Below, piece after piece: positions 284 through 18,870 of a stretch of 64,000 nucleotides of DNA. Every line of letters starts with the position of its first letter. The stretch's first letter is position 1. The notes below the pieces were generated by a model. That model made no database searches and was not told where the DNA came from. It saw only the letters and a program-made list of their open reading frames with translations. Source of the stretch: a virus (taxonomy: Duplodnaviria; Caudoviricetes); IMG/VR virus record IMGVR_UViG_2681813556_000004, positions 1 through 64,000 of that record, one strand, 5' to 3'. Position numbers and translations under genes: made by a program.

Positions 284-982
284 CTATCCGCCTTCCAGCC
301 CGGCGATCCTTTTCAGCACGGCCTTGACGTTCGACACCTGCCAGTTCCCGCCGCGCCTTGTCCTGATGCCACGGGCCGCGAGTTCTGCGGCGATGGCCCG
401 GAGCGAGGTCGCGCCGCCGGCCCGGATGTCTGCGATGACGGGGGCAAGGTCGCGGGCAAAGCCCTGGGCATTGGCGGTGACGGCGGCGCGCAGGGCGGCC
501 CCGCCCTTGCCAGCCCGCCGCAGGCTGGCGGCGCCGTTCGGATTGCCGAGCCGCACCCCGCGGGACCGGGCCGCGGCAAGGGCCTCCTTCGTCCGCCGCG
601 AGATCGCCTCGCGCTCGGCTTCCGCCACCAGCGCCATGATGCCCACCGTCAGGTCATTGGCCTGCGGCATGTCGCAGGCCAGGAACTTCACCCCGCTGTC
701 CCTGAGGGCGAGCAGGAAGGCCGCGTTGCGCGAGAGCCGGTCCAGCCTGGCGATCACCAGCGTGGAGCCGGTCACCTTCGCCAGATGCAGGGCGCGCGAC
801 AATTCCGGCCGGTCGGCCCTGCGCCCACTCTCTACTTCGGTGAACCGCGCCAACACCTCCGCACCTCGCGCCGCCGCGAATGCCCCGATCGCTTTGCGCT
901 GTGCCTCGAGGCCGAGCCCCGACAGCCCCTGCCGCGCCGTCGACACCCGCTCATAGGCCACCAGCCGCCCTGCCGCCGCCAT
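284..982 (-). CDS. Serine recombinase (resolvase/invertase family) with short C-terminal DNA-binding domain
   Basis: N-terminal LVAYERVST catalytic motif, VIARLDRLSR, AEAEREAISRRTKEAL helix, C-terminal GIRTRRGGNW. Confidence 0.9.
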   Translation of the reverse strand: MAAAGRLVAYERVSTARQGLSGLGLEAQRKAIGAFAAARGAEVLARFTEVESGRRADRPELSRALHLAKVTGSTLVIARLDRLSRNAAFLLALRDSGVKFLACDMPQANDLTVGIMALVAEAEREAISRRTKEALAAARSRGVRLGNPNGAASLRRAGKGGAALRAAVTANAQGFARDLAPVIADIRAGGATSLRAIAAELAARGIRTRRGGNWQVSNVKAVLKRIAGLEGG

Positions 983-994
983 TCGTGCTCCCCC

Positions 995-1032
995 GTACAG
1001 ACCTGCGTAACGTTCGTTGCGCAGAAGGGTAC
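995..1032. promoter_or_regulatory. Imperfect inverted repeat upstream of the resolvase (res/site-I-like)
   Basis: gtac-N5-tgcgtaacg-tt-cgttgcgca-N5-gtac: 8/9 dyad around a 2-bp centre, 13 bp upstream of the resolvase ATG. Confidence 0.5.
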
Positions 1033-1140
1033 AGGATAGGTCGCCATGAAGTGTAGCGATTTCAATGATCTAATGGCAGAAGCATGACTTGTGCGGTCGA
1101 ACGTCGTCGTCTGTGCCCACCGGCGGAGAGGCCGCTTGCG

Positions 1141-1692
1141 TCAAAGTCTGGTGGCGTCGGGGCTGAGGGTGATCACCCCTTTGGCATCATCGCCCTCATC
1201 AAGCATCCTGTCCTCGTCGCCAGCCGCGGAGATGATGATGCGGCGGATGATAACTGGCGGCTCCGCAGTTTGCGGCGTGCCCTGCACGACAATGCGCGAC
1301 CGTGCCGCCGGGGTCAGCCCGATCTCGGCCATGTAGCGGCCCATCAGTTCCATCTGCCGGTTGGCCACCGACAGCCAGGGCGATTGCTGCACATAGCCCG
1401 AGGGCGTGCGGATCAAGAGCGGGGTCTCGCGCAGCTTCTCCTCCGCCTCCACCCAGCGGCCCCAGGCCTGGCAATAGGCTGCCAGCACCGCCCGGTCGAT
1501 CACCGTGATCACCCCCATGTCGTGCAGCACTCCGACAAGTCGGCGCCATTCCCTGCGTGCCTCGGCACCAAGATGGGAGGGGCAGCGCGGCAGATCCCGC
1601 GGCGGCGCCGGTTCGGCATGGTTCCACGCCCGCTTGCCGCGGTTGCCCTCGGCCCGGCGCCAGGCGCTCGGCTTACGGGGCGGCCCGCTCAT
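1141..1692 (-). CDS. Phage terminase small subunit, P27 family
   Basis: GRKP-like N-terminus, LAAYCQAWGRW, QQSPWLSVANRQMELMGRYMAEIGLTPAARSRI typical of P27-type TerS; ATGA overlap with upstream gene. Confidence 0.85.
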   Translation of the reverse strand: MSGPPRKPSAWRRAEGNRGKRAWNHAEPAPPRDLPRCPSHLGAEARREWRRLVGVLHDMGVITVIDRAVLAAYCQAWGRWVEAEEKLRETPLLIRTPSGYVQQSPWLSVANRQMELMGRYMAEIGLTPAARSRIVVQGTPQTAEPPVIIRRIIISAAGDEDRMLDEGDDAKGVITLSPDATRL

Positions 1693-1916
1693 GGCAGCCG
1701 GTCCTGCAAGGCATTGAAGAGCCGGCGCAGCCCATAGCCGCGCAGCAACGACAGGGCAGTGAACACCGTTGCCACCATCGCATTCTCGGCCAGAACAAGG
1801 TCATGACCGAGCGCCGGGAACAGCAACCGCTGTGCCCAGAGGGAGAGCAGGAAGCCCACCACCGTGCCCGTGAGGCTTTCGAAGGCCGAAGCGCTAGGGG
1901 ATTGACCAGTGGTCAT
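1689..1916 (-). CDS. Small 2-TM hypothetical phage protein
   Basis: 75 aa from ATG 1916; two hydrophobic segments (VVGFLLSLWAQ, VATVFTALSLL); translationally coupled to terS. Confidence 0.65.
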   Translation of the reverse strand: MTTGQSPSASAFESLTGTVVGFLLSLWAQRLLFPALGHDLVLAENAMVATVFTALSLLRGYGLRRLFNALQDRLP

Positions 1917-2340
1917 TTGCCCTGTCCTTCTCCAGTTCGATGGTGTCCGCTGCCTGGCCACGCTCGCAGATGGCCAGCATCTCGCGCAAAGTCTCGTCGC
2001 TCAGCCGGGTCAGGTCGAGCGTGCTCTCCGGCAAACTGGCCGGCGTGGCGACTTCCAATGTCTCGCGCCAGCCCCCTTGCGTCTTCAGATAGAAGATCAT
2101 CGCCGTGACATTGCCGGCCCGGGCCTTGGTAACCAGGCTCTGCGCCACCGCACCCACCGTACGCGCCTTCCCCCGCTTATAGCGTTCGGAAAGATCGGGA
2201 TCCCGGTTCATCAAGGCGAAGAAGGTCGTCCGGCCGATGCCGAGGAAGTCCGCGATCTGCTCGGCGTTCAGCACGGCGGCGAGCGTCTCCACCTCGGCCC
2301 GCTGCGCGTCGGTCACGGTGACTGGCGGACGTCCTGTCAC
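1894..2340 (-). CDS. HTH protein resembling a second, different small-terminase/DNA-packaging protein
   Basis: GTG 2340 overlaps the methylase stop (GTGA); HTH EQIADFLGIGRTTF; AGNVTAMIFYLKTQGGWRE; C-terminal DLTRLSDETL of the kind common in TerS. Confidence 0.6.
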   Translation of the reverse strand: MTGRPPVTVTDAQRAEVETLAAVLNAEQIADFLGIGRTTFFALMNRDPDLSERYKRGKARTVGAVAQSLVTKARAGNVTAMIFYLKTQGGWRETLEVATPASLPESTLDLTRLSDETLREMLAICERGQAADTIELEKDRANDHWSIP

Positions 2341-3587
2341 GGGCCCCCCTCCGCAGCCCGCTCGGCGCTCACGGTCGCAAAGGTCTCTCCCGTCGCCTCC
2401 AGCACCGCCTCGCGCCCGGTGAAGGCCTGCCAGCGGGCCACCGCGACATCGACGTAAGGAGGATCCAGTTCCAACGCATGGCAATGCCGCCCGCAGGTCT
2501 CCGCCGCGATGATCGTGGTCCCCGATCCGGAGAAGGGCTCATAGACCGCCTGGCCGGGCGAGGCATTGTTCAGCATCGGCCGACGCATGCACTCGACCGG
2601 CTTCTGCGTCCCATGGACCGTGGCCGCGTCCTGGTCCCGGCTCGCGATCTGCCACAGCGTGGTCTGCCTGCGGTCACCGGTCCAATGACCCTTGCCCCTG
2701 GCCCGCACCGCATACCAGCACGGCTCGTGCTGCCAGTGATAATCGCCCCGGCCGAGCACCAGCCGCTCCTTGGCCCAGACGATCTGGCTGCGGATCGCGA
2801 AGCCGGTGACGACAAGGCTTTCGGCCACCGTGGTGGCATGCAGGGCGCCGTGCCAGACATAGGCGACCTCGCCCGGAAACAGCTCCCAGGCCTCGCGCCA
2901 GTCCGCCCGGTCGTCATTCAGCACCTTGCCGGTGCGCCGCGTCTCCGAAAGTCCCGCCCGATTGCGCCAGGCCGGATCATAACCCACCCCATAGGGCGGA
3001 TCGGTCACCATCAGATGCGGCACCACGCCAGCGAGAACGCGGGCCACGGTCCCCGCATCCGTCGCATCACCGCAGATCAGCCGATGCGGTCCGAGGCACC
3101 ACAGGTCGCCCGGACGGGAGACCGCGACCGCGGGCGCCTCCGGGACATCCTCCTCCCGGGCATCCGGCTGCCCTGCGTTCAGCAGCGCATCCAGTTCCCT
3201 CGCCTCGAAGCCGAGGCTTCCCAGGTCCACCGCCATCTCGCGCAGATCGCCCAGTTCCAGCGCCAGCAGGTCGCGATCCCATCCCGCCTGTTCCGCAAGC
3301 CTGTTGTCGGCCAGCACATAGGCCCGCTTCTGCGCCTCGCTCAGATGGGCAAGCTCGATCACCGGCACCGCCCCCAGCCCCAGCTTGCGCGCCGCCAGCA
3401 CCCGGCCATGGCCGGCGATGATGCCGTTCGTCCCGTCGACCAGCACCGGATTGGTGAAACCGTATTCCCGGATCGATCCCGCGATCAGCGCCACCTGCGC
3501 CTCCGAATGGGTCCGGGCATTGCGCGCATAGGGGATCAGGTCGCCAATCGGGCGGTAGTCGATCGTAAGGGTCCGTCCGCCGTCCAT
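2337..3587 (-). CDS. ParB-like N-terminal domain + N4/N6 DNA methyltransferase (beta class)
   Basis: PYARNARTH...GFTNPVLVD...IAGHGR (ParB); VTDPPY motif IV then VYEPFSGSGTT motif I; GGAGG RBS before ATG 3587. Confidence 0.9.
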   Translation of the reverse strand: MDGGRTLTIDYRPIGDLIPYARNARTHSEAQVALIAGSIREYGFTNPVLVDGTNGIIAGHGRVLAARKLGLGAVPVIELAHLSEAQKRAYVLADNRLAEQAGWDRDLLALELGDLREMAVDLGSLGFEARELDALLNAGQPDAREEDVPEAPAVAVSRPGDLWCLGPHRLICGDATDAGTVARVLAGVVPHLMVTDPPYGVGYDPAWRNRAGLSETRRTGKVLNDDRADWREAWELFPGEVAYVWHGALHATTVAESLVVTGFAIRSQIVWAKERLVLGRGDYHWQHEPCWYAVRARGKGHWTGDRRQTTLWQIASRDQDAATVHGTQKPVECMRRPMLNNASPGQAVYEPFSGSGTTIIAAETCGRHCHALELDPPYVDVAVARWQAFTGREAVLEATGETFATVSAERAAEGGP

Positions 3588-3771
3588 CTGCGCCTCCCAT
3601 CCCCCCGGGCCGCAACAAGCGGCATGTCCAGAGGGGCTCAGGACAAGGATATCAGATGGGGCAAGATATTGTAATAATGACAATAAATGCTGATTGACGA
3701 CAGATGGAGACGATGCCGGACAGGAGTGAAGCCATCGCCATCGCGCATCCCTGTCGCACCGAAGCGCCCGA

Positions 3772-6813: not shown

Positions 6814-7023
6814 TCAGTCCGGCGTGAAGCTCTGCCGGGCCTCGAAGGCCTCGACATCACTCAGGCGATAGAACACCAGCCCGCCGAGCCTCACCCAGGC
6901 CGGGCCGTAGCGAGCCTCCCTCCAACGCTGCAGCGTGCGCGGTGCCAGGCGCCACCGCGCCGCAAGTTCGCGTGTCGTCAGCAGGGAGGGCTGTGGCGGA
7001 TGCGCGCCGGGATGAACCGTCAT
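6814..7023 (-). CDS. Excisionase/MerR-like HTH DNA-binding protein
   Basis: LLTTRELAARWRLAPRTLQRWR...GPAWVRLGGLVFYRLSDVEAFE; TGATG coupling with upstream ORF. Confidence 0.85.
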   Translation of the reverse strand: MTVHPGAHPPQPSLLTTRELAARWRLAPRTLQRWREARYGPAWVRLGGLVFYRLSDVEAFEARQSFTPD

Positions 7024-7298
7024 CAGGCCGCCCCCCGGCGATGAACCAGGGGCAAGGCCGCGGCACCGCCCTGGCAACCCTGCTCGCGGGCAAGGAAGTA
7101 CAGCGCCTCCAGCGCCGCGCGTTCGGCGGGCGTCAGCACCGCCCGGCGGTCGAGGGCAAAGGCCAGGTCATCGAGCGTCGCTGTTGCGACCTCCACCTCG
7201 CGCGGACCGAGGCGGCACGGGCCGAAGACGCTGATCATCCGCGGCAGTGCCGCGAGGGCGAGACTGGCCGCAAGCGGGGAATGGCGGCGATCAGACAT
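7023..7298 (-). CDS. Hypothetical protein
   Basis: 91 aa, overlaps both neighbours in an operon-like chain. Confidence 0.6.
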   Translation of the reverse strand: MSDRRHSPLAASLALAALPRMISVFGPCRLGPREVEVATATLDDLAFALDRRAVLTPAERAALEALYFLAREQGCQGGAAALPLVHRRGAA

Positions 7299-7533
7299 CG
7301 GCCACCGCCCAGGCCTGAGGCGGTCTCACGGCCGGATCAGGGGCCGGCATGCCGATCGCATCCTCGCCATCATCGGCATAGATCGCCAGCAGCGGCGTGC
7401 CGTCGGCGTGATGACCGGCATCCTCGATCCGGTAGCTGCGATTGGAGGCGCAGACTTCCGCCAGTTCCCAGCGGCGGTAGAAGCCCGGCAGGCGGCGGAA
7501 CTCGCCGGGCGTGGTGGCAATGATGCAGGTCAT
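7291..7533 (-). CDS. Hypothetical protein
   Basis: 80 aa, first gene after the putative sigma-dependent promoter; coupled to next gene. Confidence 0.6.
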   Translation of the reverse strand: MTCIIATTPGEFRRLPGFYRRWELAEVCASNRSYRIEDAGHHADGTPLLAIYADDGEDAIGMPAPDPAVRPPQAWAVADV

Positions 7534-7579
7534 CGATGTCTTCCCCTGTTCCGAGTGGGGCGCCGAGGGGCGCTCACAG

Positions 7580-7612
7580 GGGAAAAGCCAATCGCGCAGG
7601 CCGGATGGGACA
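7580..7612 (-). promoter_or_regulatory. Bipartite motif TGTCCCAT-N13-TTGGCTTTTCCC; putative promoter for the element-encoded sigma factor (copy 1)
   Basis: Both blocks and the spacer length are identical to the copy at 11062-11094; lies 46 nt upstream of ATG 7533. Confidence 0.65.
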
Positions 7613-7617
7613 TCGGC

Positions 7618-8340
7618 TCAGGGGATTTCCACGAAGGCGGCCCGAAGCCTGCGCATCGCGCGCTGGTAGCGTTTGCGGGCTGCCTCGTGGGTGAGACCGA
7701 ATTCGGCGGCCACCTCCGCCTGGCTGTATCCCTCGATCGCCACACGGATCACCAGCAGGGCATCGATGCCGAGCAGCTTCCGCAGTTCATCCTCCAGGGC
7801 TGCCGCCTCCGCAGCCTGCTGGCCTCCGGCCCGATCGGCGGGCAGGTCATCGGGAGCGGTGATGCTGGTGAGGAATGTGTGCTCTGCCCGCTTGCGATGT
7901 GCGCGGATCATGTCGCGTTCGACATTGAGCAGCACCGTGGCCGCGATCCAGGTGACGCGCCCGAGATCGAGTCCGCGGACCGCCTCGGTCGTACGCGACA
8001 TGATCTCCGAGGTGATCTCCTCGGCGGAGCCGATCCTGCGCCGGATCGATCGGTGCCGGATCGCGTCCAGTCCCGGCCAGAGCGCCAGCAGCATCACGGT
8101 CAGCGCGCAATCCGACACCGGACCATCGGACTGCGCCGCCTCGACGAGGGCTGTGAGGATCAGCTTCTTGTCGTCGGATGCGTCCCTTGTGCGATGCAGC
8201 CCGTCGAACAGCGCCACCGGATCGCGGAATGGGGCTAGCGCAGCATGCGCCTGCCGCAGGGCCTCAAAGCTGCGCTGGAACTGAAGCCTGGACGAGGATC
8301 GCATCAGATCCTCGCGGATCTCGTGCCAGGAAAAGGACAC
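7618..8340 (-). CDS. ECF-like sigma-70 family RNA polymerase sigma factor
   Basis: Region-2-like TWIAATVLLNVERDMIR; region-4 HTH GYSQAEVAAEFGLTHEAARKRYQRAMRRLR; GTG start. Confidence 0.75.
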   Translation of the reverse strand: MSFSWHEIREDLMRSSSRLQFQRSFEALRQAHAALAPFRDPVALFDGLHRTRDASDDKKLILTALVEAAQSDGPVSDCALTVMLLALWPGLDAIRHRSIRRRIGSAEEITSEIMSRTTEAVRGLDLGRVTWIAATVLLNVERDMIRAHRKRAEHTFLTSITAPDDLPADRAGGQQAAEAAALEDELRKLLGIDALLVIRVAIEGYSQAEVAAEFGLTHEAARKRYQRAMRRLRAAFVEIP

Positions 8341-8413
8341 CGGACGCCAGCCTTTCGGCCGGGCGTCCAGCGCCTCTCGGGGACCAGATCAGGGCGTCAT
8401 GCGCCTCTCGGGG
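8341..8413 (-). promoter_or_regulatory. Structured leader of the sigma gene: 22-nt direct repeat x2, 3-codon uORF (8400-8389), GAAA-tetraloop hairpin abutting GTG
   Basis: Repeats 8361-8382 and 8392-8413 (20/22 identical); ATG ACG CCC TGA after GAGAGG; stem GGACGCC-C-GGCC-GAAA-GGCT-GGCGTCC ends 1 nt before GTG. Confidence 0.6.
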
Positions 8414-8439
8414 TTGAAGGGGACGGGGGAAGGCGCGCT

Positions 8440-8688
8440 CTAGCGCGCCGGCCCGCTCGTATGATTCAGCGTGCCGCAGCCGCGGCACTTCGCCTGGACC
8501 GGAAAGCCCGTGAAATACTCGTGCCCCCGCGCGAAGCTCACGTGCATCCGGCCTTCACGGAACACGCCAAGCACGCCGCCGCAGCAGATGCAGCGCCAGG
8601 TCGAGGACGGGGTGGCGGGCGGGGTCTTCTGCGTCGCGCCCGACCGGCGCAACGATGCGGGCGGGCGAGAGGGGAAGGGAATCGGCAT
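8440..8688 (-). CDS. Mu Com-like zinc-finger protein
   Basis: WRCICCGGVLG...VQAKCRGCGTLN matches the Com-type CxxC...KCxxCgtxN pattern; AGGAG RBS before ATG 8688. Confidence 0.65.
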   Translation of the reverse strand: MPIPFPSRPPASLRRSGATQKTPPATPSSTWRCICCGGVLGVFREGRMHVSFARGHEYFTGFPVQAKCRGCGTLNHTSGPAR

Positions 8689-8780
8689 CGGAGTGCTCCT
8701 TGGTTTCAGGAGCAATCCAGATGGATCAGCGAATCGGAGATTGTCAGACCCCCCAATCGGAGCCGGATCGGAGCCAGCCG

Positions 8781-10988
8781 TTACACGGCGATCTCCCAGG
8801 GCCCTTTCTGGCCGAGACTTCTCAAAAAGTTACCCTTCAGCTTGTCCCAGAGCGGCTGCTTGAAGATGTTCGGCAGGGACTGGCCTTCGGCAATGCCTCT
8901 GACAAGATCACCCGTCGTCATCGGCGTCGGGCCATTGTTATGGGCATCCACCAGCCGCTGAATGATGGCGATACGGTTTGCACCCTTGATGTCGATGGTG
9001 GCTTTTCCAGGTACGAAGAGGGTGGCCATATTCTCCCCGGAACGGGTGAGCCCGACCGCTTGTCCGCCACGGGCCAATATCCGGTGACGCCGAAACACGG
9101 ACCGGAGCTTGTCTGCGACCAAGGCGATTTCGGACTGTCCCTTGTCGATCTGATCGGCAAGCGGCGTCAGGACGTTGGCTGCCAGACACGGCCCAGGTGC
9201 TTCGCCAGCCTGAAGGACCAGGCCGATGCCGAGGTTGTGGCGCGCCCGAAGCTGCGTATCGACGTCCGACCGGACCTTCTCCCGGTCGAGACCTCGCGCG
9301 AGATAGACCGGCACATTGCCGCCATCGACCGCGAGCGTTCCAAGATAGAGAAGCTGGTCAGTCAGCTTCTCTATGGCGGGCACATCCAGCGCCTGTTCAA
9401 GACGCGCCTTCAGATGTTGTGCGACCCAGCCGTCCCGCACTCGATAGACCCGGTAGCGATCCGGTGTGCCGCCAGGGGCCAGCTGTCCTTCGGTGACCTG
9501 AAGATCGGCCACCTTATGATTTCCTGCTTCCTCATCTCCCTTTTCCACCCGGACAACAACCTCGGCTGCAACCAGGCCTATCTCGTCTTCATCGTCGATC
9601 AGGTCGTCGCCTACCCAACCGGCAGGGACAAGAAATCCGATTTCCATCAGAAGGCTGGGATCGACGCCGCGTTTAACCAGCCACTCGCCGGTGACCCTGT
9701 CTGCCCCTATGTCCCAGATGGCCAGCAACGCAGGCATGACCGCCATGCTCTCCGCATCGCCTGGCGCGCGACCCTCACGGAGGATATTCCAGTGTCGAAG
9801 CAGGCGATGCCCCAGAACCCGTTCGAACGGGTCGTCAATACTGAGAAGGCTGCTCGTGTTACGATCGGTAAGCGTGAAGTCGAGGGTTTGCACATCGTCT
9901 CGCTCCGCGCGGCGATACCGCACCGCAATCTCGATGAAGCGGATCGCGACCGCCCGCTCGAAAATCCTCGGGAGGCCCGGCTGGCTGTGGATGAGTTCGG
10001 AGATGTCCTGATCGATAGTGGTGGAAAGCGAGAGGCGGTTGGCGAGATTGCCGATGCTGATGTCAGCGCGGATCACTTGCGCACGGGTGATCACCACATC
10101 GTCGAGTTCCGGCAGTTCCAGATCGAGGGCCTGCATGAACCGCGAGATGTCGTAGGCCTGAAAGTCGACGGGCTGGTTGGAATAGGTCTGATCGAGGGCC
10201 GTTTCGATGAATCGCTCGGCGATGGTGTGCCTGAACTTTCGGTTGCCAGCGCGGACATGTACCCGTCCGGTTGATGGCGTGTAGACGATCATCGCCTCTC
10301 CGGGTGGCCGGAAATAGATACTTGACCTATTGCCGTTGTCGTCGATCTCCCGGACGCTCGTGGGCGGATCGGGATGATACAGCAGGTACATCTCTGCCGC
10401 CGGTTCATCGCCGTCCTCGGGGATGTCGAACTTGTCGATGCTGTAGCCGTCGCCGCGATCGAGGCGCTTGTTGAGGTCGACAAGAAGCTCTTCGAGCAAT
10501 GCGCTGCCGGCGTCCGGGCCTCCGTCGACCGAAGGCTCCGCCATGAAGGTCTGGTAGTGCTTGTCATAGCGCCGGTAGAGCCGCAGGTGCAGGCTGTTCT
10601 CCGCCGCTTCGAACAGCCCGTGTTCGTTCGCAAAGGCCCACAGGCTGCGCGCCAGCCTGTCCCGCTGGTTCAGAAGCTCCCTGGCGCGGTCGGGTTCGAG
10701 CCTGGTTGTGGCGAGACCTTGGAGGACATACTCACCGCGGTCACTCGCAATTGTGACGATCCGGGCGGCTTCAGTTTCGAGCGGACCCAGCCGGTCCTTC
10801 TTTTCCTGCCGCAGCATGGTCCTGGCAAGCGACGGACCGTCCGGGTTGTCCACATCGAACTTGTAGGCAGAAAGCCAGTTCAACCTCTCGAAAGCTCTAG
10901 CCGCGAGAAATCCGGACAGCAGATTCGGCTCTGCATCATCGAATAGCCGGGAAAGACTGGGGCAGGTCTTCGTGGGCGCGCGAACCAT
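8781..10988 (-). CDS. 735-aa multidomain hypothetical protein, possible C-terminal winged HTH
   Basis: Long globular-looking ORF; GAGGT RBS before ATG 10988; no family motif recognised. Confidence 0.8.
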   Translation of the reverse strand: MVRAPTKTCPSLSRLFDDAEPNLLSGFLAARAFERLNWLSAYKFDVDNPDGPSLARTMLRQEKKDRLGPLETEAARIVTIASDRGEYVLQGLATTRLEPDRARELLNQRDRLARSLWAFANEHGLFEAAENSLHLRLYRRYDKHYQTFMAEPSVDGGPDAGSALLEELLVDLNKRLDRGDGYSIDKFDIPEDGDEPAAEMYLLYHPDPPTSVREIDDNGNRSSIYFRPPGEAMIVYTPSTGRVHVRAGNRKFRHTIAERFIETALDQTYSNQPVDFQAYDISRFMQALDLELPELDDVVITRAQVIRADISIGNLANRLSLSTTIDQDISELIHSQPGLPRIFERAVAIRFIEIAVRYRRAERDDVQTLDFTLTDRNTSSLLSIDDPFERVLGHRLLRHWNILREGRAPGDAESMAVMPALLAIWDIGADRVTGEWLVKRGVDPSLLMEIGFLVPAGWVGDDLIDDEDEIGLVAAEVVVRVEKGDEEAGNHKVADLQVTEGQLAPGGTPDRYRVYRVRDGWVAQHLKARLEQALDVPAIEKLTDQLLYLGTLAVDGGNVPVYLARGLDREKVRSDVDTQLRARHNLGIGLVLQAGEAPGPCLAANVLTPLADQIDKGQSEIALVADKLRSVFRRHRILARGGQAVGLTRSGENMATLFVPGKATIDIKGANRIAIIQRLVDAHNNGPTPMTTGDLVRGIAEGQSLPNIFKQPLWDKLKGNFLRSLGQKGPWEIAV

Positions 10989-11061
10989 GAGCCACCTCGC
11001 TGTCATTTCCGACGAGAGTAGGGACATCACCCGGTTTCGCCAGAGATTTTCTCCGGCCCCC

Positions 11062-11094
11062 TGTCCCATTGCCTCACCGGATTTGGCTTTTCCC
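11062..11094 (+). promoter_or_regulatory. Bipartite motif TGTCCCAT-N13-TTGGCTTTTCCC; putative sigma-dependent promoter (copy 2)
   Basis: Exact match of both blocks to 7580-7612; 27 nt upstream of ATG 11122 that heads the DUF2924/LSR operon. Confidence 0.65.
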
Positions 11095-11121
11095 TGGCAG
11101 ATGCTCCCCGGATGCCCTGCC

Positions 11122-11325
11122 ATGAAGCACCCCAATCCCCTGTCGCCCTTCCTGATGACCTCCGCCGAGCGGCGGGCCGAGTTGTGCCGCATCCTGGCCC
11201 TCGGGCTGGTCCGGTTGCGCATGAGGAAGTCAAGCGAACTCTCTGACGACATGGGAGAAACTTCGCTACACCTTCCGCCCGCAAAGAGCGTTGGTCGGCA
11301 TGCAAATCACCGGAGACCCGCATGA
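11122..11325 (+). CDS. Small hypothetical protein heading the recombinase operon
   Basis: MKHPNPLSPFLMTSAERRAELCRILALGLVRL; ATGA overlap with next gene. Confidence 0.65.
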   Translation: MKHPNPLSPFLMTSAERRAELCRILALGLVRLRMRKSSELSDDMGETSLHLPPAKSVGRHANHRRPA

Positions 11326-11777
11326 CGACGCATGATCCCATTCCCGCGCGCCTGGCCGCGCTGAAGACCACGCCGACGCCGGAACTGAAGCAACAGTGGC
11401 GCGATCTGTTCGACAGCGAACCGCCGCCCTTCAATCGCCGCTACCTTGAATCCCGGCTGGCCTATCGCATCCAGGAACTTGCCTACGGCGGCCTGAAGCC
11501 CGAGACGATTCGGCGCCTCGAACGGCTCGGCGAGGAACTGGACGGCGGCGACAGGAAGAAGCGCGGCATCCGAGCCGATCGCGACCGCCCCATCACCGGC
11601 ACGCGCCTCCTGCGCGAATGGCAGGGCGTCGAACAGATCGTGACCGTCACCGCCGACGGCTTCGAATGGCAGGGTCGGCCGTACAAGTCGCTGTCCGCCA
11701 TCGCACGGGCCATCACCGGCACGCGCTGGAACGGCTGGACCTTCTTCGGGCTCAAGAACCACAGGGGGCGGACATGA
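11322..11777 (+). CDS. DUF2924 domain protein
   Basis: LAYRIQELAYGGL...GTRLLREWQG...GFEWQGRPYKSLSAIARAITGTRWNGWTFFGL. Confidence 0.9.
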   Translation: MTTHDPIPARLAALKTTPTPELKQQWRDLFDSEPPPFNRRYLESRLAYRIQELAYGGLKPETIRRLERLGEELDGGDRKKRGIRADRDRPITGTRLLREWQGVEQIVTVTADGFEWQGRPYKSLSAIARAITGTRWNGWTFFGLKNHRGRT

Positions 11778-13099
11778 CGAAGCCGCCGGATAAATCGAAG
11801 GTCGTCCGCAAGCTGCGATGTGCCGTCTACACCCGGAAGTCCTCCGAGGAAGGGCTGGAGCAGGAGTTCAACAGCCTCCACGCCCAACGTGAGGCCTGCG
11901 AGGCCTACATTGCCAGCCAGCGCTCCGAGGGCTGGGCGCTGGTCCGCGATCAGTATGACGACGGCGGCATCTCAGGCGGCACGCTGGAGCGGCCCGGCCT
12001 GAAGCGGCTGCTGGAGGATATCGAGGACGGGTTGGTCGACGTGGTGGTGGTCTACAAGATCGACCGCCTCAGCCGCTCGCTCGCCGACTTCGCCAAGCTG
12101 GTCGAGGTGTTCGACCGGAACGGCGTGACGTTCGTCTCGGTGACGCAGTCGTTCAACACGACGACCTCCATGGGACGGCTGACGCTGAACATCCTGCTGT
12201 CCTTCGCCCAGTTCGAGCGCGAGGTCACGGCCGAGCGCATCCGCGATAAGGTCGCGGCCTCTCGGCGCAAGGGCATGTGGATGGGCGGGGTACCGCCCTA
12301 CGGCTATCGCGTCGAGAACCGGAAGCTGGTGGTGGAAGACGACCAGTCTGCGCACGTCCGCTGGATCTTCGGCCGCTTCCTCGAGATCGGGTCCTGCACG
12401 GAACTGGCGCGGGAGGTTGGCGTACGCGGGATCCGGACGCCGCGCGGCAACCGGATCGACAAGAAATACATCTACCGGATGCTCAGCAACCGCGCCTACA
12501 TCGGCGAGGCGGTCCACAAAGGCGACAGCTATCCCGGCGAGCACGACGCGATCATCGACCGCGAGACTTGGGACCGCGTCCACGCCATCCTGCAGGAGAG
12601 CCCGCGCAAGCGTGCCGCGCGCACCCGAGCTGAGACGCCCGCGCTGCTGAAGGGGCTGCTGTTCGGGCCCGATGGCGCTGCGTTCTCGCCGACGCATACC
12701 CGCAAGGGCGACCGGCTCTACCGCTATTATGTCAGCCAGACAGTGCTGAAGCATGGCGCTGGATCCTGCCCCATCGGCCGCGTGCCAGCGGGGGAGATAG
12801 AGGCCGCCGTCATCGATCAGCTCCGCGCCGTGTTCCGCCAGCCCGAAATCGTGGCGGGGACATGGAAGGCGGCGCGCGCCCACGCCGACGATATCAGCGA
12901 AGCCGACGCCCGGACGGCACTGCAGCAGCTTGATCCGCTGTGGGGCGAGCTGTTCCCCGCCGAGCAGGCGCGCATCGTGGAGTTGTTGGTCGAGCGCGTG
13001 GAGATCGGGACGGACGGGTTGAACGTCCGGCTCCGTGTGGATGGGCTCGGCGGCCTCGCACGCGAGATGCTGGCCGGAGACATGGGAGCGGCCGCATGA
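11774..13099 (+). CDS. Large serine recombinase (integrase)
   Basis: CAVYTRKS catalytic motif, YDDGGISGG, YKIDRLSRSL, FAQFERE, PPYGY recombinase domain; 441 aa from ATG 11774. Confidence 0.95.
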   Translation: MTKPPDKSKVVRKLRCAVYTRKSSEEGLEQEFNSLHAQREACEAYIASQRSEGWALVRDQYDDGGISGGTLERPGLKRLLEDIEDGLVDVVVVYKIDRLSRSLADFAKLVEVFDRNGVTFVSVTQSFNTTTSMGRLTLNILLSFAQFEREVTAERIRDKVAASRRKGMWMGGVPPYGYRVENRKLVVEDDQSAHVRWIFGRFLEIGSCTELAREVGVRGIRTPRGNRIDKKYIYRMLSNRAYIGEAVHKGDSYPGEHDAIIDRETWDRVHAILQESPRKRAARTRAETPALLKGLLFGPDGAAFSPTHTRKGDRLYRYYVSQTVLKHGAGSCPIGRVPAGEIEAAVIDQLRAVFRQPEIVAGTWKAARAHADDISEADARTALQQLDPLWGELFPAEQARIVELLVERVEIGTDGLNVRLRVDGLGGLAREMLAGDMGAAA

Positions 13100-13739: not shown

Positions 13740-15206
13740 GTGAAGTATCAAAATAATCCACCAGACGCCTCTGCGCTGATGACGTCGGCGCGGAGCTTTG
13801 GGAACTACGACTTGTCGAGTGCTCTTGCCGATCTCTTGGACAACAGCATAAAGGCAAAAGCACGTAGTATCGAAATTAAATGCATCCGGAAGGATGACGG
13901 GCCCGAGGTCAGGATTCTGGATGATGGGTCCGGAATGTCGGCGAACGAGCTACATCGGGCTATGCGACCCGCCAGCACCAATCCCGACGATGAACGGGCT
14001 CGCGATGACCTCGGCCGGTTCGGCTGGGGCATGAAGTCGGCATCGCTCTCGCAGTGCCGGCTCCTGACCGTCGTCACCCGACACGATGGAGTTCTGTCTG
14101 GCGCATCTTGGGATCTTGATGATCTCGCCGACTGGAAAATGGGAGTCCTCGAGCCAGAGGAAATAAAGGCGTTAGCCGATCAACGGCTGCTTGAGCGCGA
14201 CGGGACGGAGGTTATCTGGTGCAAGTGTGATCGTCTTTCTGAGTTCGGCCAGGTCGGCGGCAAAGGCTTCAACGACATCGTCGCACACGCAAAGGCGCAG
14301 CTGTCTCTCATCTTCCACCGTTATCTGGGCGGCGAGGAAGGTCTTCGGAAGCTCAAGGTCAATTTTAATGGGGACGCGCTAAAACCGGCAGACCCCTTCT
14401 TCCGCCACCATGACGCAACGCAGGCCCAGCCAAAGGAAACGCTTACCCTCGATGGTCAGCCCATCGAGGTGCAGGCCTTCATCCTCCCGCACTATTCGAA
14501 GATAACTGCGGGCGAGCACGACCGGCTGGGCGCTGAGGAAGGCTTCGTTCGCAATCAAGGGTTCTATGTATATAGACAACACCGACTAATCATACATGGA
14601 ACATGGTTTCGGCTGGTGAAGCACGGCGAACTGTCGCAACTTGTCCGGATCGCGATTAACATCCCCAACTCGCTCGATGCCATGTGGAAGATCACCTTAG
14701 ACAAGGCGGACGCACAGCTTCCGTCCGGGCTGAAAAGCCGTTTGAAGGACATCGTAGACGGCCTCAAGAGAAAATCAGGAAAGGTGTTCCAATCCCGCGG
14801 CGGTCGAGTCCGGAATGAAGCTGGGAAGACGTCGGTCTGGGCAAAATATGTAAGGAACGGCGAGGTCCGATATTATCTCAATCGCGAGCATCCACTGATC
14901 GCCGGAATGCTTGATGAAGATGACAAAGACAGAGCCAAGGCGTTTGCTGCAGCGCTCGGCATCATCGAGGACTGCTTCCCTGTTGTCAGCATTGGCGAAG
15001 ACTATTCTTCACGCCCGGAAATGATGAATCAGAGCGTAGTGGATCGAAGCACGTTTATCGAAAAGCTCGATGCAGCTCTTCCTTCGCTACTTTTGCATGT
15101 GGGGGGCAATATGAAAACACTTCACGAGATCCTCGCGTCTACCGAGCCGTGGTCCAATCACGCCGATATCGTGCTGACACACCTTAAGGAAAAAGGGTGG
15201 AACTGA
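13740..15206 (+). CDS. MORC/MutL-type GHKL ATPase (Mza-like defence locus)
   Basis: LADLLDNSIKA, ILDDGSGM, LGRFGWGMKSAS GHKL motifs; RNQGFYVYRQHRLI. Confidence 0.9.
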   Translation: MKYQNNPPDASALMTSARSFGNYDLSSALADLLDNSIKAKARSIEIKCIRKDDGPEVRILDDGSGMSANELHRAMRPASTNPDDERARDDLGRFGWGMKSASLSQCRLLTVVTRHDGVLSGASWDLDDLADWKMGVLEPEEIKALADQRLLERDGTEVIWCKCDRLSEFGQVGGKGFNDIVAHAKAQLSLIFHRYLGGEEGLRKLKVNFNGDALKPADPFFRHHDATQAQPKETLTLDGQPIEVQAFILPHYSKITAGEHDRLGAEEGFVRNQGFYVYRQHRLIIHGTWFRLVKHGELSQLVRIAINIPNSLDAMWKITLDKADAQLPSGLKSRLKDIVDGLKRKSGKVFQSRGGRVRNEAGKTSVWAKYVRNGEVRYYLNREHPLIAGMLDEDDKDRAKAFAAALGIIEDCFPVVSIGEDYSSRPEMMNQSVVDRSTFIEKLDAALPSLLLHVGGNMKTLHEILASTEPWSNHADIVLTHLKEKGWN

Positions 15207-17897
15207 ATGTTTGACAGCGAACTTGCGTACTTTCGTTCAATGATCACCCGAGACTATGGTGAGGACATTGCTCAAGGAAACGGCCTACCTGAAGGTGCGA
15301 TCAGTAAAATCGTCCGGTGCGGCCCCTTCCAGCACCTCGGTGAGCCGGCAATCAATGCAATCATCCGCGAGCTAGAATCGAGCTTCACGGTAACCCAGAA
15401 GCGCGGAGCAGTCATTACAAAGGACCATCGGCCTTGGCTAGCGGCAAAGCGGCCGCAGATTGACTTCTATTACTGGAATCGGCTCCGTAAATATTATCTT
15501 GAGACGGGAACTCTTCCGTCGCACGTGCTTGCCACGCTTGACTCCGATACAGACGAGATTCTCGACCAGTGCGGTAACCCGAGAGACGAGAATTACGGCG
15601 CTGTTCGCGGCATGGTCATGGGCAATGTCCAGTCGGGCAAGACCACTAATTATTCGGCACTGATCTGCAAAGCTGCGGACGCAGGCTACCGAGTCATCAT
15701 CCTGCTTGCCGGGATTACCAATTCGCTGCGTTCCCAGACGCAGGAACGGCTCGATGAAACCTTCATTGGCAAGGTCTCGATGTTCGGCGCGGTCGCCCAG
15801 CAATCGTTGCCGATCCAGAATTACGCAGCGACGCGGCGGATCCCCTCCTACGGCACGACCCGGGTGGCCGATTTTTCGAGTGGCAAGGACGGCATCTATT
15901 TCGGCCTGTCCGGTCATCAGGAGCCGATGATCTTCATCACCAAGAAGAACAAAGGCATCCTTGAACGTCTCGCTCTCTGGATCGAGAAGCAGGGGGAGAC
16001 TGGCGGCTATGACCTGCCGCTTCTGTTAATCGACGACGAAGCCGACAATGCGTCCATAAATACAGCCAGTGATCCTAAGCGCACTACTGCTATCAACGGT
16101 GTCATCAGGCAGATCCTGTCACGTTTTCCGCGCTCGTCGTATGTCGGCTATACCGCTACACCGTTCGCCAACATTTTCATCGACCCGGAAACGACGGAAG
16201 AGATGGAGACGGACGACCTTTTTCCAGGCAATTTCATCAAGGCGCTCGATCCGCCCACCAACTATGCCGGCTCACGCCGGATCTTCCGGGAAGGCGGTGA
16301 CCTGCGTGAAGGCATGGTCCGCATCATTGACGATTATCGTCTGCTACTGCCACTCAAGCACAAGAGCGGTGACACTGTTGCCGACATCCCCGACAGTCTG
16401 CGCCACGCGATCCGCGTGTTCTGCATCACGCGGGCCATCAGGGTACTCCAAGGCAAGGGCAAAGCTCATTGCTCGATGATGATCAACGTCAGCCGATTCA
16501 ATGCCATCCAGGACCAGATTCTGGGTCAGGTTTACGAATACCTTGCCGAGATCAAGGACGCGATCGCGGTCCACGCATCGCTGCCGCCCGACGAGATCAG
16601 CGATGATGTCATGGACGATCTCGAAGCGAGCTTCACCAAGGAGTTTGATGATAGCGGGCTCGACTGGCATGGGCTGCTTGGGGTTCTCAACGAGGGCGTA
16701 CAGTCCATAGAGGTCCGCACCGTCAATATGCGGGGCGGCAAGCTCGACTATTCACTACACAAGTTTGACGGCCTTCATGTCATCGCCATCGGCGGATTGG
16801 CGCTGTCACGCGGGCTGACACTCGAAGGCCTCACGGTTTCTTATCTCCTGCGCAATGCGACTGCGAGCGACACGCTGATGCAGATGGCGCGCTGGTTCGG
16901 CTACCGCACGGGTTATGAGGAATATTGTCGCCTCTATCTGCCTCAGATGTCCTTCGATCATTACGAATTTGTCGACGAGGCAACTGAAGAACTTAGGAGC
17001 GAGATCAAGCGCATGCAGGCCGCGCGCCGCACTCCGCGCGACTTCGGTCTCAAAGTCCGGCAAAGCCCGCTCGCCATCCGGGTAACCGCGGCAAACAAGA
17101 TGCGCACGGCTGAGAAGCTCAAAATCGCACAGGATTATTCCGCGCGTCACATCGAGGGCTTCGCACTCCCCAATGATCCGGTCATCGGTAATAATCAGCG
17201 CAATGCAGCCGACAAATTCCTCTCCGCGCTCGGAGACCCTACTGAGAAGGGCAAGGGTTTCATTCGCTGGTCTGCTAGTGGCCGCGACGTGCTCAAACTC
17301 CTTCGCGAATTCCGGTTTGTGGATCATCCCGATCTATCGGTAATTTCCGACACATCCCTCTTTGAGGACTATGTTCAGGACCGCGTCACTGACGAACTGG
17401 CTGAATGGGATGTGGTGCTTCCCATGCGTCAGTCGGGCGACTCCGTTCAGTTCGCCGGTCAGGACATCAATCTGAGGTCCCGCGACCAAGGAACGGTCCA
17501 GCGGGGTACCTATCGTGTGTACGGCAGCAAGAACCGCGTCGCCGACCCGGGGGACGCGCAGATCGGCCTGTCAGACGCACAGAAGGTAGCGGCGGAAGCA
17601 GCCTACCAAGCCGAGATTTACAAGAAGGAACGTGCCGCGTGCTCGGTACGCGAGCGGCCGATGATGCTCGTGCATGTTTTCGGTGCAAAACTGCGCGACG
17701 ACCGGGTCGATTGCGACGACGAGCTCAAGCTAGACACGCCCATCGTCACGCTTTCCTTCTGCATGCCTGAGACCGGGAAACCTGCGAAGGAGAGAACCTA
17801 CCAGGTGAACGCTGTCTATCGCCAGCAACTCGAACTTTATGTCGCCGAAGAAGACGATGATTCCCAAGCGATGATGGAGGCTCAGGATGCTGAATGA
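15207..17897 (+). CDS. Z1-domain protein with SF2 helicase-like N-terminus
   Basis: GNVQSGKT Walker A, LLIDDEAD, GYTATPFAN, IGGLALSRGLTLEGLTVSY, DTLMQMARWFGYR. Confidence 0.9.
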   Translation: MFDSELAYFRSMITRDYGEDIAQGNGLPEGAISKIVRCGPFQHLGEPAINAIIRELESSFTVTQKRGAVITKDHRPWLAAKRPQIDFYYWNRLRKYYLETGTLPSHVLATLDSDTDEILDQCGNPRDENYGAVRGMVMGNVQSGKTTNYSALICKAADAGYRVIILLAGITNSLRSQTQERLDETFIGKVSMFGAVAQQSLPIQNYAATRRIPSYGTTRVADFSSGKDGIYFGLSGHQEPMIFITKKNKGILERLALWIEKQGETGGYDLPLLLIDDEADNASINTASDPKRTTAINGVIRQILSRFPRSSYVGYTATPFANIFIDPETTEEMETDDLFPGNFIKALDPPTNYAGSRRIFREGGDLREGMVRIIDDYRLLLPLKHKSGDTVADIPDSLRHAIRVFCITRAIRVLQGKGKAHCSMMINVSRFNAIQDQILGQVYEYLAEIKDAIAVHASLPPDEISDDVMDDLEASFTKEFDDSGLDWHGLLGVLNEGVQSIEVRTVNMRGGKLDYSLHKFDGLHVIAIGGLALSRGLTLEGLTVSYLLRNATASDTLMQMARWFGYRTGYEEYCRLYLPQMSFDHYEFVDEATEELRSEIKRMQAARRTPRDFGLKVRQSPLAIRVTAANKMRTAEKLKIAQDYSARHIEGFALPNDPVIGNNQRNAADKFLSALGDPTEKGKGFIRWSASGRDVLKLLREFRFVDHPDLSVISDTSLFEDYVQDRVTDELAEWDVVLPMRQSGDSVQFAGQDINLRSRDQGTVQRGTYRVYGSKNRVADPGDAQIGLSDAQKVAAEAAYQAEIYKKERAACSVRERPMMLVHVFGAKLRDDRVDCDDELKLDTPIVTLSFCMPETGKPAKERTYQVNAVYRQQLELYVAEEDDDSQAMMEAQDAE

Positions 17898-18870
17898 ATG
17901 GGAAGCGATTATCCCGCCATATGACCCGGGGTCCTACAACGTCCGACTTGCCGACAGCAGCCATCCGCTCGATTTCAGGATTGGCCGTGACTATCGCGGA
18001 CGTTTTGTCTTCCAACTTGATGCAGAGTGTGCGGAGCCCGGCGCGCTCGACCTGCCGAAGATGTCAGCGATGACCTGCGAAGTCGAGCCTGCAGGTGATG
18101 GGCGTTCGAGATTTGTCCTGACCCTCAGCAACGCTGCGGACTTCCGGAATTTCGCCCTTATGTGCAAAAGCCTCATGCTGGCGACTGACAAGTTCACTCC
18201 GTCACAGGCTAGAGAAGGGCTGCTGCAAGCCGTCGAGGAAGTTCACCGTTGGCAGGAGATGCTGCGCCGAAGGGCCGACCGCCTGCTGTCAAAAACCGAG
18301 AGGATTGGCCTGGTCGGCGAATTGCTGTTTCTGCGAGACGTTCTCAGCGACCGGCTTGGCTGGAATGCCGCCATCCGATGCTGGAACGGCCCCGGCGGTC
18401 ATGAGCAGGATTTTGTGGTTGCCGGCAGCATTTTTGAGGTGAAGACGCAGGTGGTGACTGCCGATCGCCGGATCCGAATTTCTTCCGAAGACCAGCTTGA
18501 TCCGGTTCAGGGACGGATCCTGCTCTGCAATCAGGGCATTGCGCCGCTGCCTTCCGTCGACCCGGCGGCTCGGACCCTCAACCTTCTGGTGTCAGAGATC
18601 CGTGACGCAATGGCTCAGGCTGGCTCGGGCGCCCCGGAACTACTCGATATTGCTCTTCTGGAGGCGGGCTACGAGGAGCGGCAGGACTATGACGAGGAGA
18701 GTTGGGTATTAGTGGACCGCACCTATTATGAGGTGTGCGGAACTTTTCCGCGTATTGAGCGCAGCGATCTACGGCCCGGTGTCGACATGGTCAAGTACAG
18801 TATCCGCGTTAGTGACTGTGTTCCCTTTACCGTCAGCGATGATGAAGTGTTCGGGGGAATCATTCAATGA
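17887..18870 (+). CDS. PD-(D/E)XK motif protein (DUF4420-like nuclease)
   Basis: GLVGELLFL...WNGPGGHEQDF...IFEVKT...IRISSEDQLD; between Z1 and AIPR genes. Confidence 0.85.
   Translation: MLNEWEAIIPPYDPGSYNVRLADSSHPLDFRIGRDYRGRFVFQLDAECAEPGALDLPKMSAMTCEVEPAGDGRSRFVLTLSNAADFRNFALMCKSLMLATDKFTPSQAREGLLQAVEEVHRWQEMLRRRADRLLSKTERIGLVGELLFLRDVLSDRLGWNAAIRCWNGPGGHEQDFVVAGSIFEVKTQVVTADRRIRISSEDQLDPVQGRILLCNQGIAPLPSVDPAARTLNLLVSEIRDAMAQAGSGAPELLDIALLEAGYEERQDYDEESWVLVDRTYYEVCGTFPRIERSDLRPGVDMVKYSIRVSDCVPFTVSDDEVFGGIIQ

Follow-up and report, generated by a model that had tools for sequence, protein, structure and literature searches.

The DNA analyzed here, referred to as the window, is a 64,000-nucleotide (nt) stretch from a tailed-phage record (Caudoviricetes; IMGVR_UViG_2681813556_000004, positions 1 to 64,000). 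Within it, a mobile element carries a gene for a sigma-like protein of 240 amino acids (aa) flanked by two copies of a two-block, promoter-like motif, one heading a set of replication genes and the other an operon for a large serine recombinase (LSR). This arrangement raises the question of whether the element encodes a sigma factor that reads both copies and switches on the two operons together. The comparisons described below suggest that it probably does, as the second step of a two-step cascade.

The two-block motif and its conservation

The motif, TGTCCCAT-N13-TTGGCTTTTCCC, was found in two exact copies in the window (P1 and P2; Table 1), where none was expected, 100 dinucleotide-preserving shuffles having produced 0 matches. 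The 20 specified bases (8 + 12) and the 13-nt gap length are identical in the two copies, and the gap sequences differ (CCGGCCTGCGCGA in P1, TGCCTCACCGGAT in P2), just as the original prediction, made from the window before this analysis, had described them at 7612-7580 (minus) and 11062-11094 (plus). With up to three mismatches allowed, the same two copies were the sole matches in the window. The 4.17-Mb genome contained no further exact copy, and in the one three-mismatch site found elsewhere in it (contig 27) both core blocks were broken. P1 begins 5 nt past the stop codon of the sigma gene, with the ATG of orf80 50 nt after its end; P2 lies within a divergent intergenic region facing orf735, with the ATG of orf67 31 nt downstream. 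The core kept across the family is TGTCCC-N17-GGCTTT, which spans 29 nt and has the block arrangement of a -35/-10 promoter, for which the canonical comparison is TTGACA-N17-TATAAT. A search of Rfam gave no match at E values up to 1 over 7200-11400. The predicted 5' leader downstream of P1 (7534-7579, minus) can fold a stem, CCCCTGT...ACAGGGG, around GCGCC...GGCGC, and relatives carry GAGCGCC twice at the corresponding place.

Of 401 genomes sampled from the order, 26, among them that of the window, contained a homologue of the sigma gene. These genomes represent 23 of 138 genera, a patchy spread typical of a mobile element. Named homologues include some from Paracoccus and Gemmobacter, and others were found in the Hyphomicrobiales (Shinella, Devosia, Brucella, and Rhodoplanes). 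The motif is found at corresponding positions in over 25 genome-borne relatives from two alphaproteobacterial orders and in approximately 100 viral contigs. A P1 orthologue was located 5 to 12 nt past the sigma stop codon and ahead of orf80 in every related element examined, and a P2 orthologue was located ahead of the orf67-DUF2924-LSR genes in all relatives whose locus spans that region. Complete prophages, the commonest type, have a third copy (P3) in direct orientation 1504 nt past P1, where it heads a replication module comprising a 207-aa gene, a ResIII/DEAD helicase, DUF6511, and an AAA_25 protein. All 54 distinct sites are intergenic and co-directional with the downstream operon, and all have a spacer of exactly 17 nt and variable sequence. 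The distance from the end of the -10-like block to the start codon was 31 to 50 nt where measured (the window's P1 and several P2 sites). Conservation of the motif in homologous elements, which the original prediction had named as its first check, was thus observed for the blocks, the 17-nt spacing, the orientation, and the position alike.

Information content was calculated from 28 representative sites less than 80% identical to one another. The spacer and outer flanks carried less than 0.5 bit per position, and several positions outside those used for selection were also conserved at 1.0 to 1.9 bits (position 7, G/A; 8, A/T; 9, T; 23, T/C; 30, T). The 9th and 10th positions past the second block are purines in 26 of the 28 sites, as for a start site. 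The 12 core bases were invariant or showed one change in elements whose sigma is 33 to 68% identical to that of the window, and the core was unchanged even where this identity was 33 to 43%. The flanks at positions 7-8 and 23, respectively, are clade specific: AA and C for the divergent clade, AT and T for the window, and mostly GA or GT and T for the others. Covariation of motif with sigma sequence had also been proposed as a check: the flanks at 7-8 and 23 follow the clade, among elements that are kin, and since the 12 core bases do not vary, no specificity-changing covariation can be shown for them. Many relatives are close kin, so that the counts overstate independence; the strongest independent support is that from the distant sigma clades, from the P1, P2, and P3 paralogues within one element, and from the cross-order occurrences.

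Linkage of the motif to a sigma-like protein

Linkage of the motif to the sigma gene was exclusive. Across the 401 genomes, those bearing the sigma gene had two to five core matches each, clustered at the element. At least one core match occurred in 159 of the 375 sigma-less genomes, with a mean of about 0.55 matches per genome, equal to that of a reversed-pattern control. The motif is therefore at chance level in genomes without the element, indicating that no host regulon uses it. A scan of IMG/VR by DNA alone with the pattern TGTCCCGAT-N14-GGCTTTT returned at least 120 loci. Among the 120 matches listed, 97 hold the sigma gene, and in 94 of these 97 the motif lies less than 40 nt past it. 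The other 23 listed loci comprise about 20 from the same phage family in which the sigma slot falls beyond the fetched stretch or the contig end, one related sigma-less contig (L180), and two unrelated loci. The pairing of motif and sigma gene seen in the window thus recurred in genomes and viral contigs, in which the two travel together.

Two apparent sigma-less counter-examples among the genomes were set aside, G363 being cut at a contig end and G360 being a deleted prophage remnant with a deletion of about 30 kb. In the G360 remnant (L062:5530-12047), tail genes (tape measure, DUF2460-like, and hub) lie at most 2 kb from the P2-orf67-DUF2924-LSR cassette, and about 30 kb, comprising the entire early, sigma, replication, and head region, has been lost. 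On the sigma-less contig L180 (L180:1-8909; IMGVR_UViG_3300025603_001465), perfect core motifs occur twice, ahead of orf80-like genes, an HTH_17 gene, and the orf67-DUF2924-LSR cassette. A search of this contig, possibly cut at its ends, detected no sigma homologue even with the family hidden Markov model, and the contig may represent a sigma-less dependant of a helper's sigma.

The sigma-like protein matched sigma region 4 in Pfam with scores just above the cut-offs (PF04545, 27.0 bits with a cut-off of 24.1; PF08281, 26.1 bits with a cut-off of 25.7). It also matched TIGR02937, the extracytoplasmic function (ECF) superfamily model of NCBIfam, over residues 100-234 (E value of 5.6e-8) and PHROG 1740, sigma factor (E value of 1.4e-9). 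A profile of 18 homologues searched against the PDB matched CnrH (E value of 4.5e-4), SigE, SigL, and RpoE, the alignments to SigE and RpoE extending from residues 104-105 to 236. The AlphaFold (AF2) model had a predicted local distance difference test score (pLDDT) of 83.5 and exhibited two helical domains separated by a disordered linker (residues 162-175, pLDDT of <50). When the model was compared all-against-representatives with known folds, the hit list was almost wholly sigma factors. Residues 41-158 resembled sigma domain 2 (RpoS region 2, Z of 8.7, root mean square deviation [rmsd] of 2.9 Å over 96 residues; SigA domain 2, Z of 7.8; SigC Pribnow-box domain, Z of 6.8), residues 171-240 resembled sigma domain 4 (SigR region 4, aligned with residues 178-240, Z of 8.6, rmsd of 2.5 Å over 62 residues), and the whole protein resembled CnrH (Z of 9.3, 150 residues). 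The top Foldseek matches were also sigma factors, with weak E values. Domain 3 and region 1.1 are absent from the predicted structure, in which domains 2 and 4 are joined by a short flexible linker within the 240 aa, and there is an additional N-terminal helical stretch of about 55 residues that is atypical for ECF proteins. We read the protein as a divergent two-domain sigma factor (sigma2-linker-sigma4) of predicted ECF-like build with extra N-terminal helices, the term "ECF sigma" being used for a structural resemblance. The sigma annotation itself is not new, since database entries already call homologues "ECF subfamily" or "sigma-70 family".

The residues invariant in the family cluster in the region-2.4-like helix (A133, A134, T135, L137, N139, E141, and R142) and in the region-4.2 helix (R222, K223, R224, Q226, and R227), matching the invariance of both DNA blocks. 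Two separate predicted DNA-reading domains would fit two unlike blocks at a fixed distance.

The predicted cascade and its alternatives

We propose, as the probable explanation of these comparative and modeling results, that the element-encoded sigma reads P1 and P2 and co-induces the replication and recombinase operons in a two-step cascade. The operon of orf735, the Com-like gene, and the sigma gene would presumably be transcribed by the host's own sigma. The element sigma would then bind the host core RNA polymerase and steer it to promoters with TGTCCC at -35 and GGCTTT at -10, separated by 17 nt, with transcription expected to start about 8 to 10 nt past the -10 block. P1 would turn on orf80 and the HTH_17/PrimPol-helicase replication genes, P2 would turn on orf67-DUF2924-LSR, and P3, in complete phages, would join the same regulon. 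Replication and site-specific recombination (integration or excision) would in this way be co-induced as one middle-stage regulon, with the methylase/small-terminase (TerS) module remaining outside it. orf80, the first gene after P1, is a candidate feedback regulator or anti-sigma. In sequence-family searches of Pfam, NCBIfam, and PHROGs, neither it nor the Com-like neighbor matched any anti-sigma family.

Several observations weigh against this proposal. The evidence for the cascade is comparative and structure-predictive throughout. Pfam Sigma70_r2 gave no match in the 240-aa protein, and the TIGR02937 score of 32.6 bits falls short of the curated 42.9-bit cut-off, so that of the ECF-type sigma originally predicted, the two-domain fold and the profile matches stand and membership by the curated ECF threshold does not. 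Fold Z scores of 8 to 9 are in the range of possible chance matches among helical proteins, in a list that is nonetheless nearly all sigma factors. The usual promoter elements of ECF factors are AAC and CGT, and TGTCCC and GGCTTT are unlike them. orf80, orf67, and the Com-like protein accompany the motif as faithfully as the sigma does, and co-occurrence alone therefore cannot single out the sigma as the binder. No terminator was detected in the scan between the sigma gene and P1, meaning that read-through could also express the P1 operon. Finally, no core match (at most one mismatch, spacing of 15 to 19) was found in the sigma orientation upstream of orf735, the Com-like gene, or the sigma gene, either in the window or in relatives. 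Without a motif copy on its operon, the sigma is presumably expressed by the host holoenzyme, which makes it a second-tier relay and not the top switch. The master switch over excision and replication that had been envisaged is retained in that the motif heads both operons, and is modified in that the sigma operon itself lacks the motif.

It is unlikely, in our view, that the motif is instead a promoter read by a host alternative sigma, or by host polymerase together with orf80, orf67, or the Com-like protein, while the sigma-like protein acts elsewhere. The tight linkage of orf80, orf67, and the zinc-ribbon gene would suit such a reading, as would the sub-threshold family scores of the sigma protein and the retention of the motif without a sigma gene in the G360 remnant and in L180 (8.9 kb). 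However, genomes devoid of the element contain the core no more often than chance predicts, profile searches recognized no DNA-binding fold in the small proteins, and unlike blocks at promoter spacing suit a reader with sigma2 and sigma4 domains; G360, moreover, is accounted for by its deletion.

A role as an operator rather than a promoter, for example for an immunity protein that silences both operons when the element is integrated, appears quite improbable. It would be in keeping with the placement of the motif in regions that control two or three operons and with a short CCGG...CCGG dyad in the spacers of main-clade P1 and P3, but neither the window sites nor most P2 sites contain this dyad. 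Dimeric binders usually recognize half-sites that repeat each other, a relation that the two blocks do not show in either direct or inverted orientation. Furthermore, the 29-nt length and 17-nt spacer reproduce the canonical -35/-10 geometry, every copy points the same way as the gene that it precedes, and these short intergenic regions yielded no further promoter-like site.

We give very little credence to the inverted pair being sites at which one of the serine recombinases inverts or excises the 3.4-kb orf735-Com-sigma segment, or terminators. The window copies do lie in inverted orientation on either side of a discrete cassette of three genes, the first of which is variable. However, the third copy in complete prophages is direct and 1504 nt from P1, and the sites show none of the internal dyad symmetry found in crossover sites of serine recombinases. 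In more than 100 loci the cassette was never seen inverted, no co-directional gene lies upstream of P2 whose transcription it could end, and a consensus scan found no terminator-like hairpin at P1 or P2.

Returning to the sigma cascade, we considered how its first step might be controlled. No convincing sigma-70 consensus was found in 10989-11121 as a host-type promoter for the orf735-Com-sigma operon. In the divergent region of 10 main-clade prophages, a perfect GTTC-N7-GTTC is located 26 to 27 nt upstream of P2 (L035:13148-13162, L036:13147-13161, L037:6731-6745, and seven more); this repeat has the form of the alphaproteobacterial LexA box. Since transcription of the orf735-Com-sigma operon must begin from an early promoter in this divergent region, the LexA-box-like repeat suggests SOS control of sigma, and hence an order of SOS, sigma, and middle genes in complete prophages. 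The repeat was not found in the window's own divergent region (10989-11061).

The original prediction had extended sigma control to the methylase/TerS packaging operon through a weaker third site (TGTCCT at 3645-3640, N18, and CGCTT at 3621-3617, minus). This extension did not hold, as there is no conserved motif copy there. The candidate is intergenic, given that the methylase most likely starts at the ATG at 3587, and it was rejected as a family site because it matches the core at 5/6 and 4/6 positions, has the wrong spacing (18 nt), and is absent from two relatives of the same layout. Within the same intergenic region (3588-3771), between the PrimPol-helicase stop codon and the probable methylase start, there is an AT-rich inverted repeat, ATTGT-N7-ACAAT (3668-3684, minus), shared with these two relatives (L052 and L055), which is a candidate promoter or operator of the methylase-TerS module independent of the sigma motif.

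Element types, known systems, and implications

Genes were assigned by Pfam, NCBIfam, and PHROG profile matches (Table 1), and these agree with the earlier reading that P1 heads the HTH and PrimPol/helicase genes and that P2 heads a small open reading frame (ORF), DUF2924, and the LSR. The P1 operon genes from orf80 to the PrimPol-helicase abut or overlap, with no motif in between. The Com-like gene is directly upstream of the sigma gene in one operon, an adjacency kept in relatives, and orf735, for which there was no Pfam or NCBIfam match, varies among relatives from 26 to 86% identity or is absent. The true start of the LSR is probably near 11774. In the leader between the Com-like and sigma genes (8341-8439), GGGCGTC-NN-GCGCCTCTCGGGG is repeated in tandem (two copies, plus strand), and the sole terminator-like hairpin in the scan overlaps the sigma start codon (8351-8339).

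Table 1. Promoter-like sites and genes of the element in the window
Feature	Coordinates	Strand	Sequence or assignment
Distal module	284..3587	minus	ParB-methylase, TerS-like orf196, TerS (Terminase_4), 232-aa small serine recombinase; no motif copy
PrimPol-helicase, 1012 aa	3772..6810	minus	P1 operon; Pfam and PHROG matches
HTH_17/AlpA-like gene	6814..7077	minus	P1 operon; Pfam and PHROG matches
orf91	7023..7298	minus	P1 operon
orf80	7291..7533	minus	First gene after P1; kept in all relatives
P1, promoter-like	7580..7612	minus	TGTCCCAT CCGGCCTGCGCGA TTGGCTTTTCCC
P1 blocks	7612-7607; 7589-7584	minus	-35-like TGTCCC; -10-like GGCTTT; 17-nt spacer
Sigma-like gene, 240 aa	7618..8340	minus	Sigma region 4 match
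Com-like zinc-ribbon gene	8440..8715	minus	CxxC...CxxC; weak Pfam Zn_ribbon_Com match
orf735	8781..10988	minus	First gene of orf735-Com-sigma operon; phrog_37634 match
P2, promoter-like	11062..11094	plus	TGTCCCAT TGCCTCACCGGAT TTGGCTTTTCCC
P2 blocks	11062-11067; 11085-11090	plus	TGTCCC; GGCTTT
orf67	11122..11325	plus	First gene of P2 operon
DUF2924 gene	11322..11777	plus	P2 operon; Pfam DUF2924
LSR	ORF 11618..13099	plus	Pfam Resolvase, Recombinase, Zn_ribbon_recom

The majority type of element in this family is a complete temperate phage, which beyond the replication module encodes a methylase, a GpA-type large terminase, a lambda-type portal, a capsid, a tail tube, a tape measure, and a gene transfer agent (GTA)-like distal tail. 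The window type shares with these phages only the orf735-Com-sigma-P1-orf80 and P2-orf67-DUF2924-LSR cassettes and otherwise consists of a PrimPol-helicase replicon, a ParB-methylase, two small-terminase genes, and a small serine recombinase, followed by host DNA. The element spans the HNH gene, the small recombinase, and TerS through the sigma gene to the LSR, with host genes beyond the HNH gene to the left of the window and host UPF0149/SEC-C next to the LSR end. It thus has a recombinase, a regulator, a replicon, and TerS, has no capsid, tail, or large-terminase genes, and lies between host genes. The same layout was found in G030, where it is bounded by a host TRAP transporter, and in G396 and G120. 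By gene content, the window's element is a satellite-like relative of the complete phages. A neighboring prophage in the window was considered as a helper of the same family and rejected, as it shares no structural proteins with the complete relatives.

Further features of these elements were observed. The two small-terminase-like genes stand in tandem and are unlike each other (1894-2484 and 1141-1692), one matching phrog_309 and the other Terminase_4/phrog_83; they are followed by the 232-aa serine recombinase, whose Recombinase domain is truncated, and this arrangement is kept in G030 and G396. Just past the LSR (13740-20942), a cluster of lower GC content (54 to 58%) contains HATPase_c_3, Z1, DUF4420 (PD-(D/E)XK), and AIPR and looks like an anti-phage defense island carried as cargo. 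Between L064 (Shinella sp. PSBB067, NZ_CP069303.1), a Rhizobiaceae replicon, and L036 (G338), from a genome of the window's own family, the replication proteins of the complete prophage (AAA_24, helicase, and DUF6511) are 95 to 97% identical, which points to very recent cross-order spread.

Phage-encoded sigma factors with phage-specific promoters have been described for the lytic phages phiEco32 and 7-11 (PMC4331800) and for Bacillus phage SPO1, which has middle and late sigmas (PMC13401047). In those phages, as predicted here, a mobile element supplies a sigma-70-family subunit that redirects the host core to a repeated short promoter, and initial transcription of the sigma gene depends on the host holoenzyme. 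Those phages are lytic, whereas the present elements are temperate alphaproteobacterial phages and a satellite-like island, with the integrase (LSR) operon placed within the predicted regulon. In 7-11, phage-type promoters also occur upstream of the sigma gene (PMC4331800), whereas here none was found on the sigma operon. The ECF group 4 factors (CnrH, SigE, SigL, and RpoE) gave the best profile and fold matches and share the sigma2-linker-sigma4 build without domain 3. The element protein differs from them in falling below the TIGR02937 cut-off, in its undetected Pfam region 2, in its approximately 55 extra N-terminal residues, in having no recognized adjacent anti-sigma and no autoregulatory promoter found, and in its promoter blocks.

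Judged by genes alone, the window's element resembles phage-inducible chromosomal islands (PICI) and other phage satellites in having a recombinase, an AlpA-like HTH_17 gene before a primase-helicase, and TerS genes and in lacking capsid and tail genes. Unlike PICI, it has an LSR with DUF2924 instead of a tyrosine integrase, and it would be controlled by its own sigma instead of a master repressor or AlpA. RinA/ArpU-type proteins are small late-gene activators of temperate phages, RinA controlling the terS/late packaging operon (PMC3152322). By description, they are likewise small phage-encoded factors with a defined operon set and a conserved site; here, in contrast to RinA, the packaging module is the part without the motif.

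A search of 50,697 deposited phage genomes (INPHARED) gave no sigma homologue, and the family, comprising at least 684 protein clusters, has no representative among them. Our literature search found no publication on this element family, none joining DUF2924 with a sigma factor, and none joining a phage satellite with Rhodobacteraceae; the one DUF2924/serine-recombinase publication found concerns Wolbachia genomics. Compared with known phage sigma cascades, the predicted system differs in its temperate setting, in the inclusion of the integrase operon in the regulon, in the lack of autoregulation, and in its distance from ECF models. A further difference is that the same code is common to complete phages and to elements without structural genes.

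Since complete phages and satellite-like islands share the sigma/promoter pair, it may serve as a cross-talk channel, in which a helper's sigma fires P1 and P2 of a resident satellite, triggering excision and replication, or a satellite's sigma fires helper promoters prematurely. We put this forward tentatively and think it rather unlikely. If it is true, satellites with the promoters but without a sigma, for which L180 is a lead, would depend wholly on a helper's sigma, and satellite induction would be sigma factor based, of which we know of no earlier description.

The sigma/motif pair appears compact and orthogonal to the host, and because the motif is at chance level outside the elements, the pair could serve as an expression switch in Rhodobacteraceae and Rhizobiales. 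These data provide a concrete candidate regulatory code, TGTCCC-N17-GGCTTT together with one 240-aa protein, for a widespread group of alphaproteobacterial temperate phages and satellite-like islands. That the code is common to both makes helper-satellite cross-activation directly testable. Placing the LSR operon under an element-encoded sigma would couple integration or excision to replication, unlike the textbook repressor/excisionase scheme.

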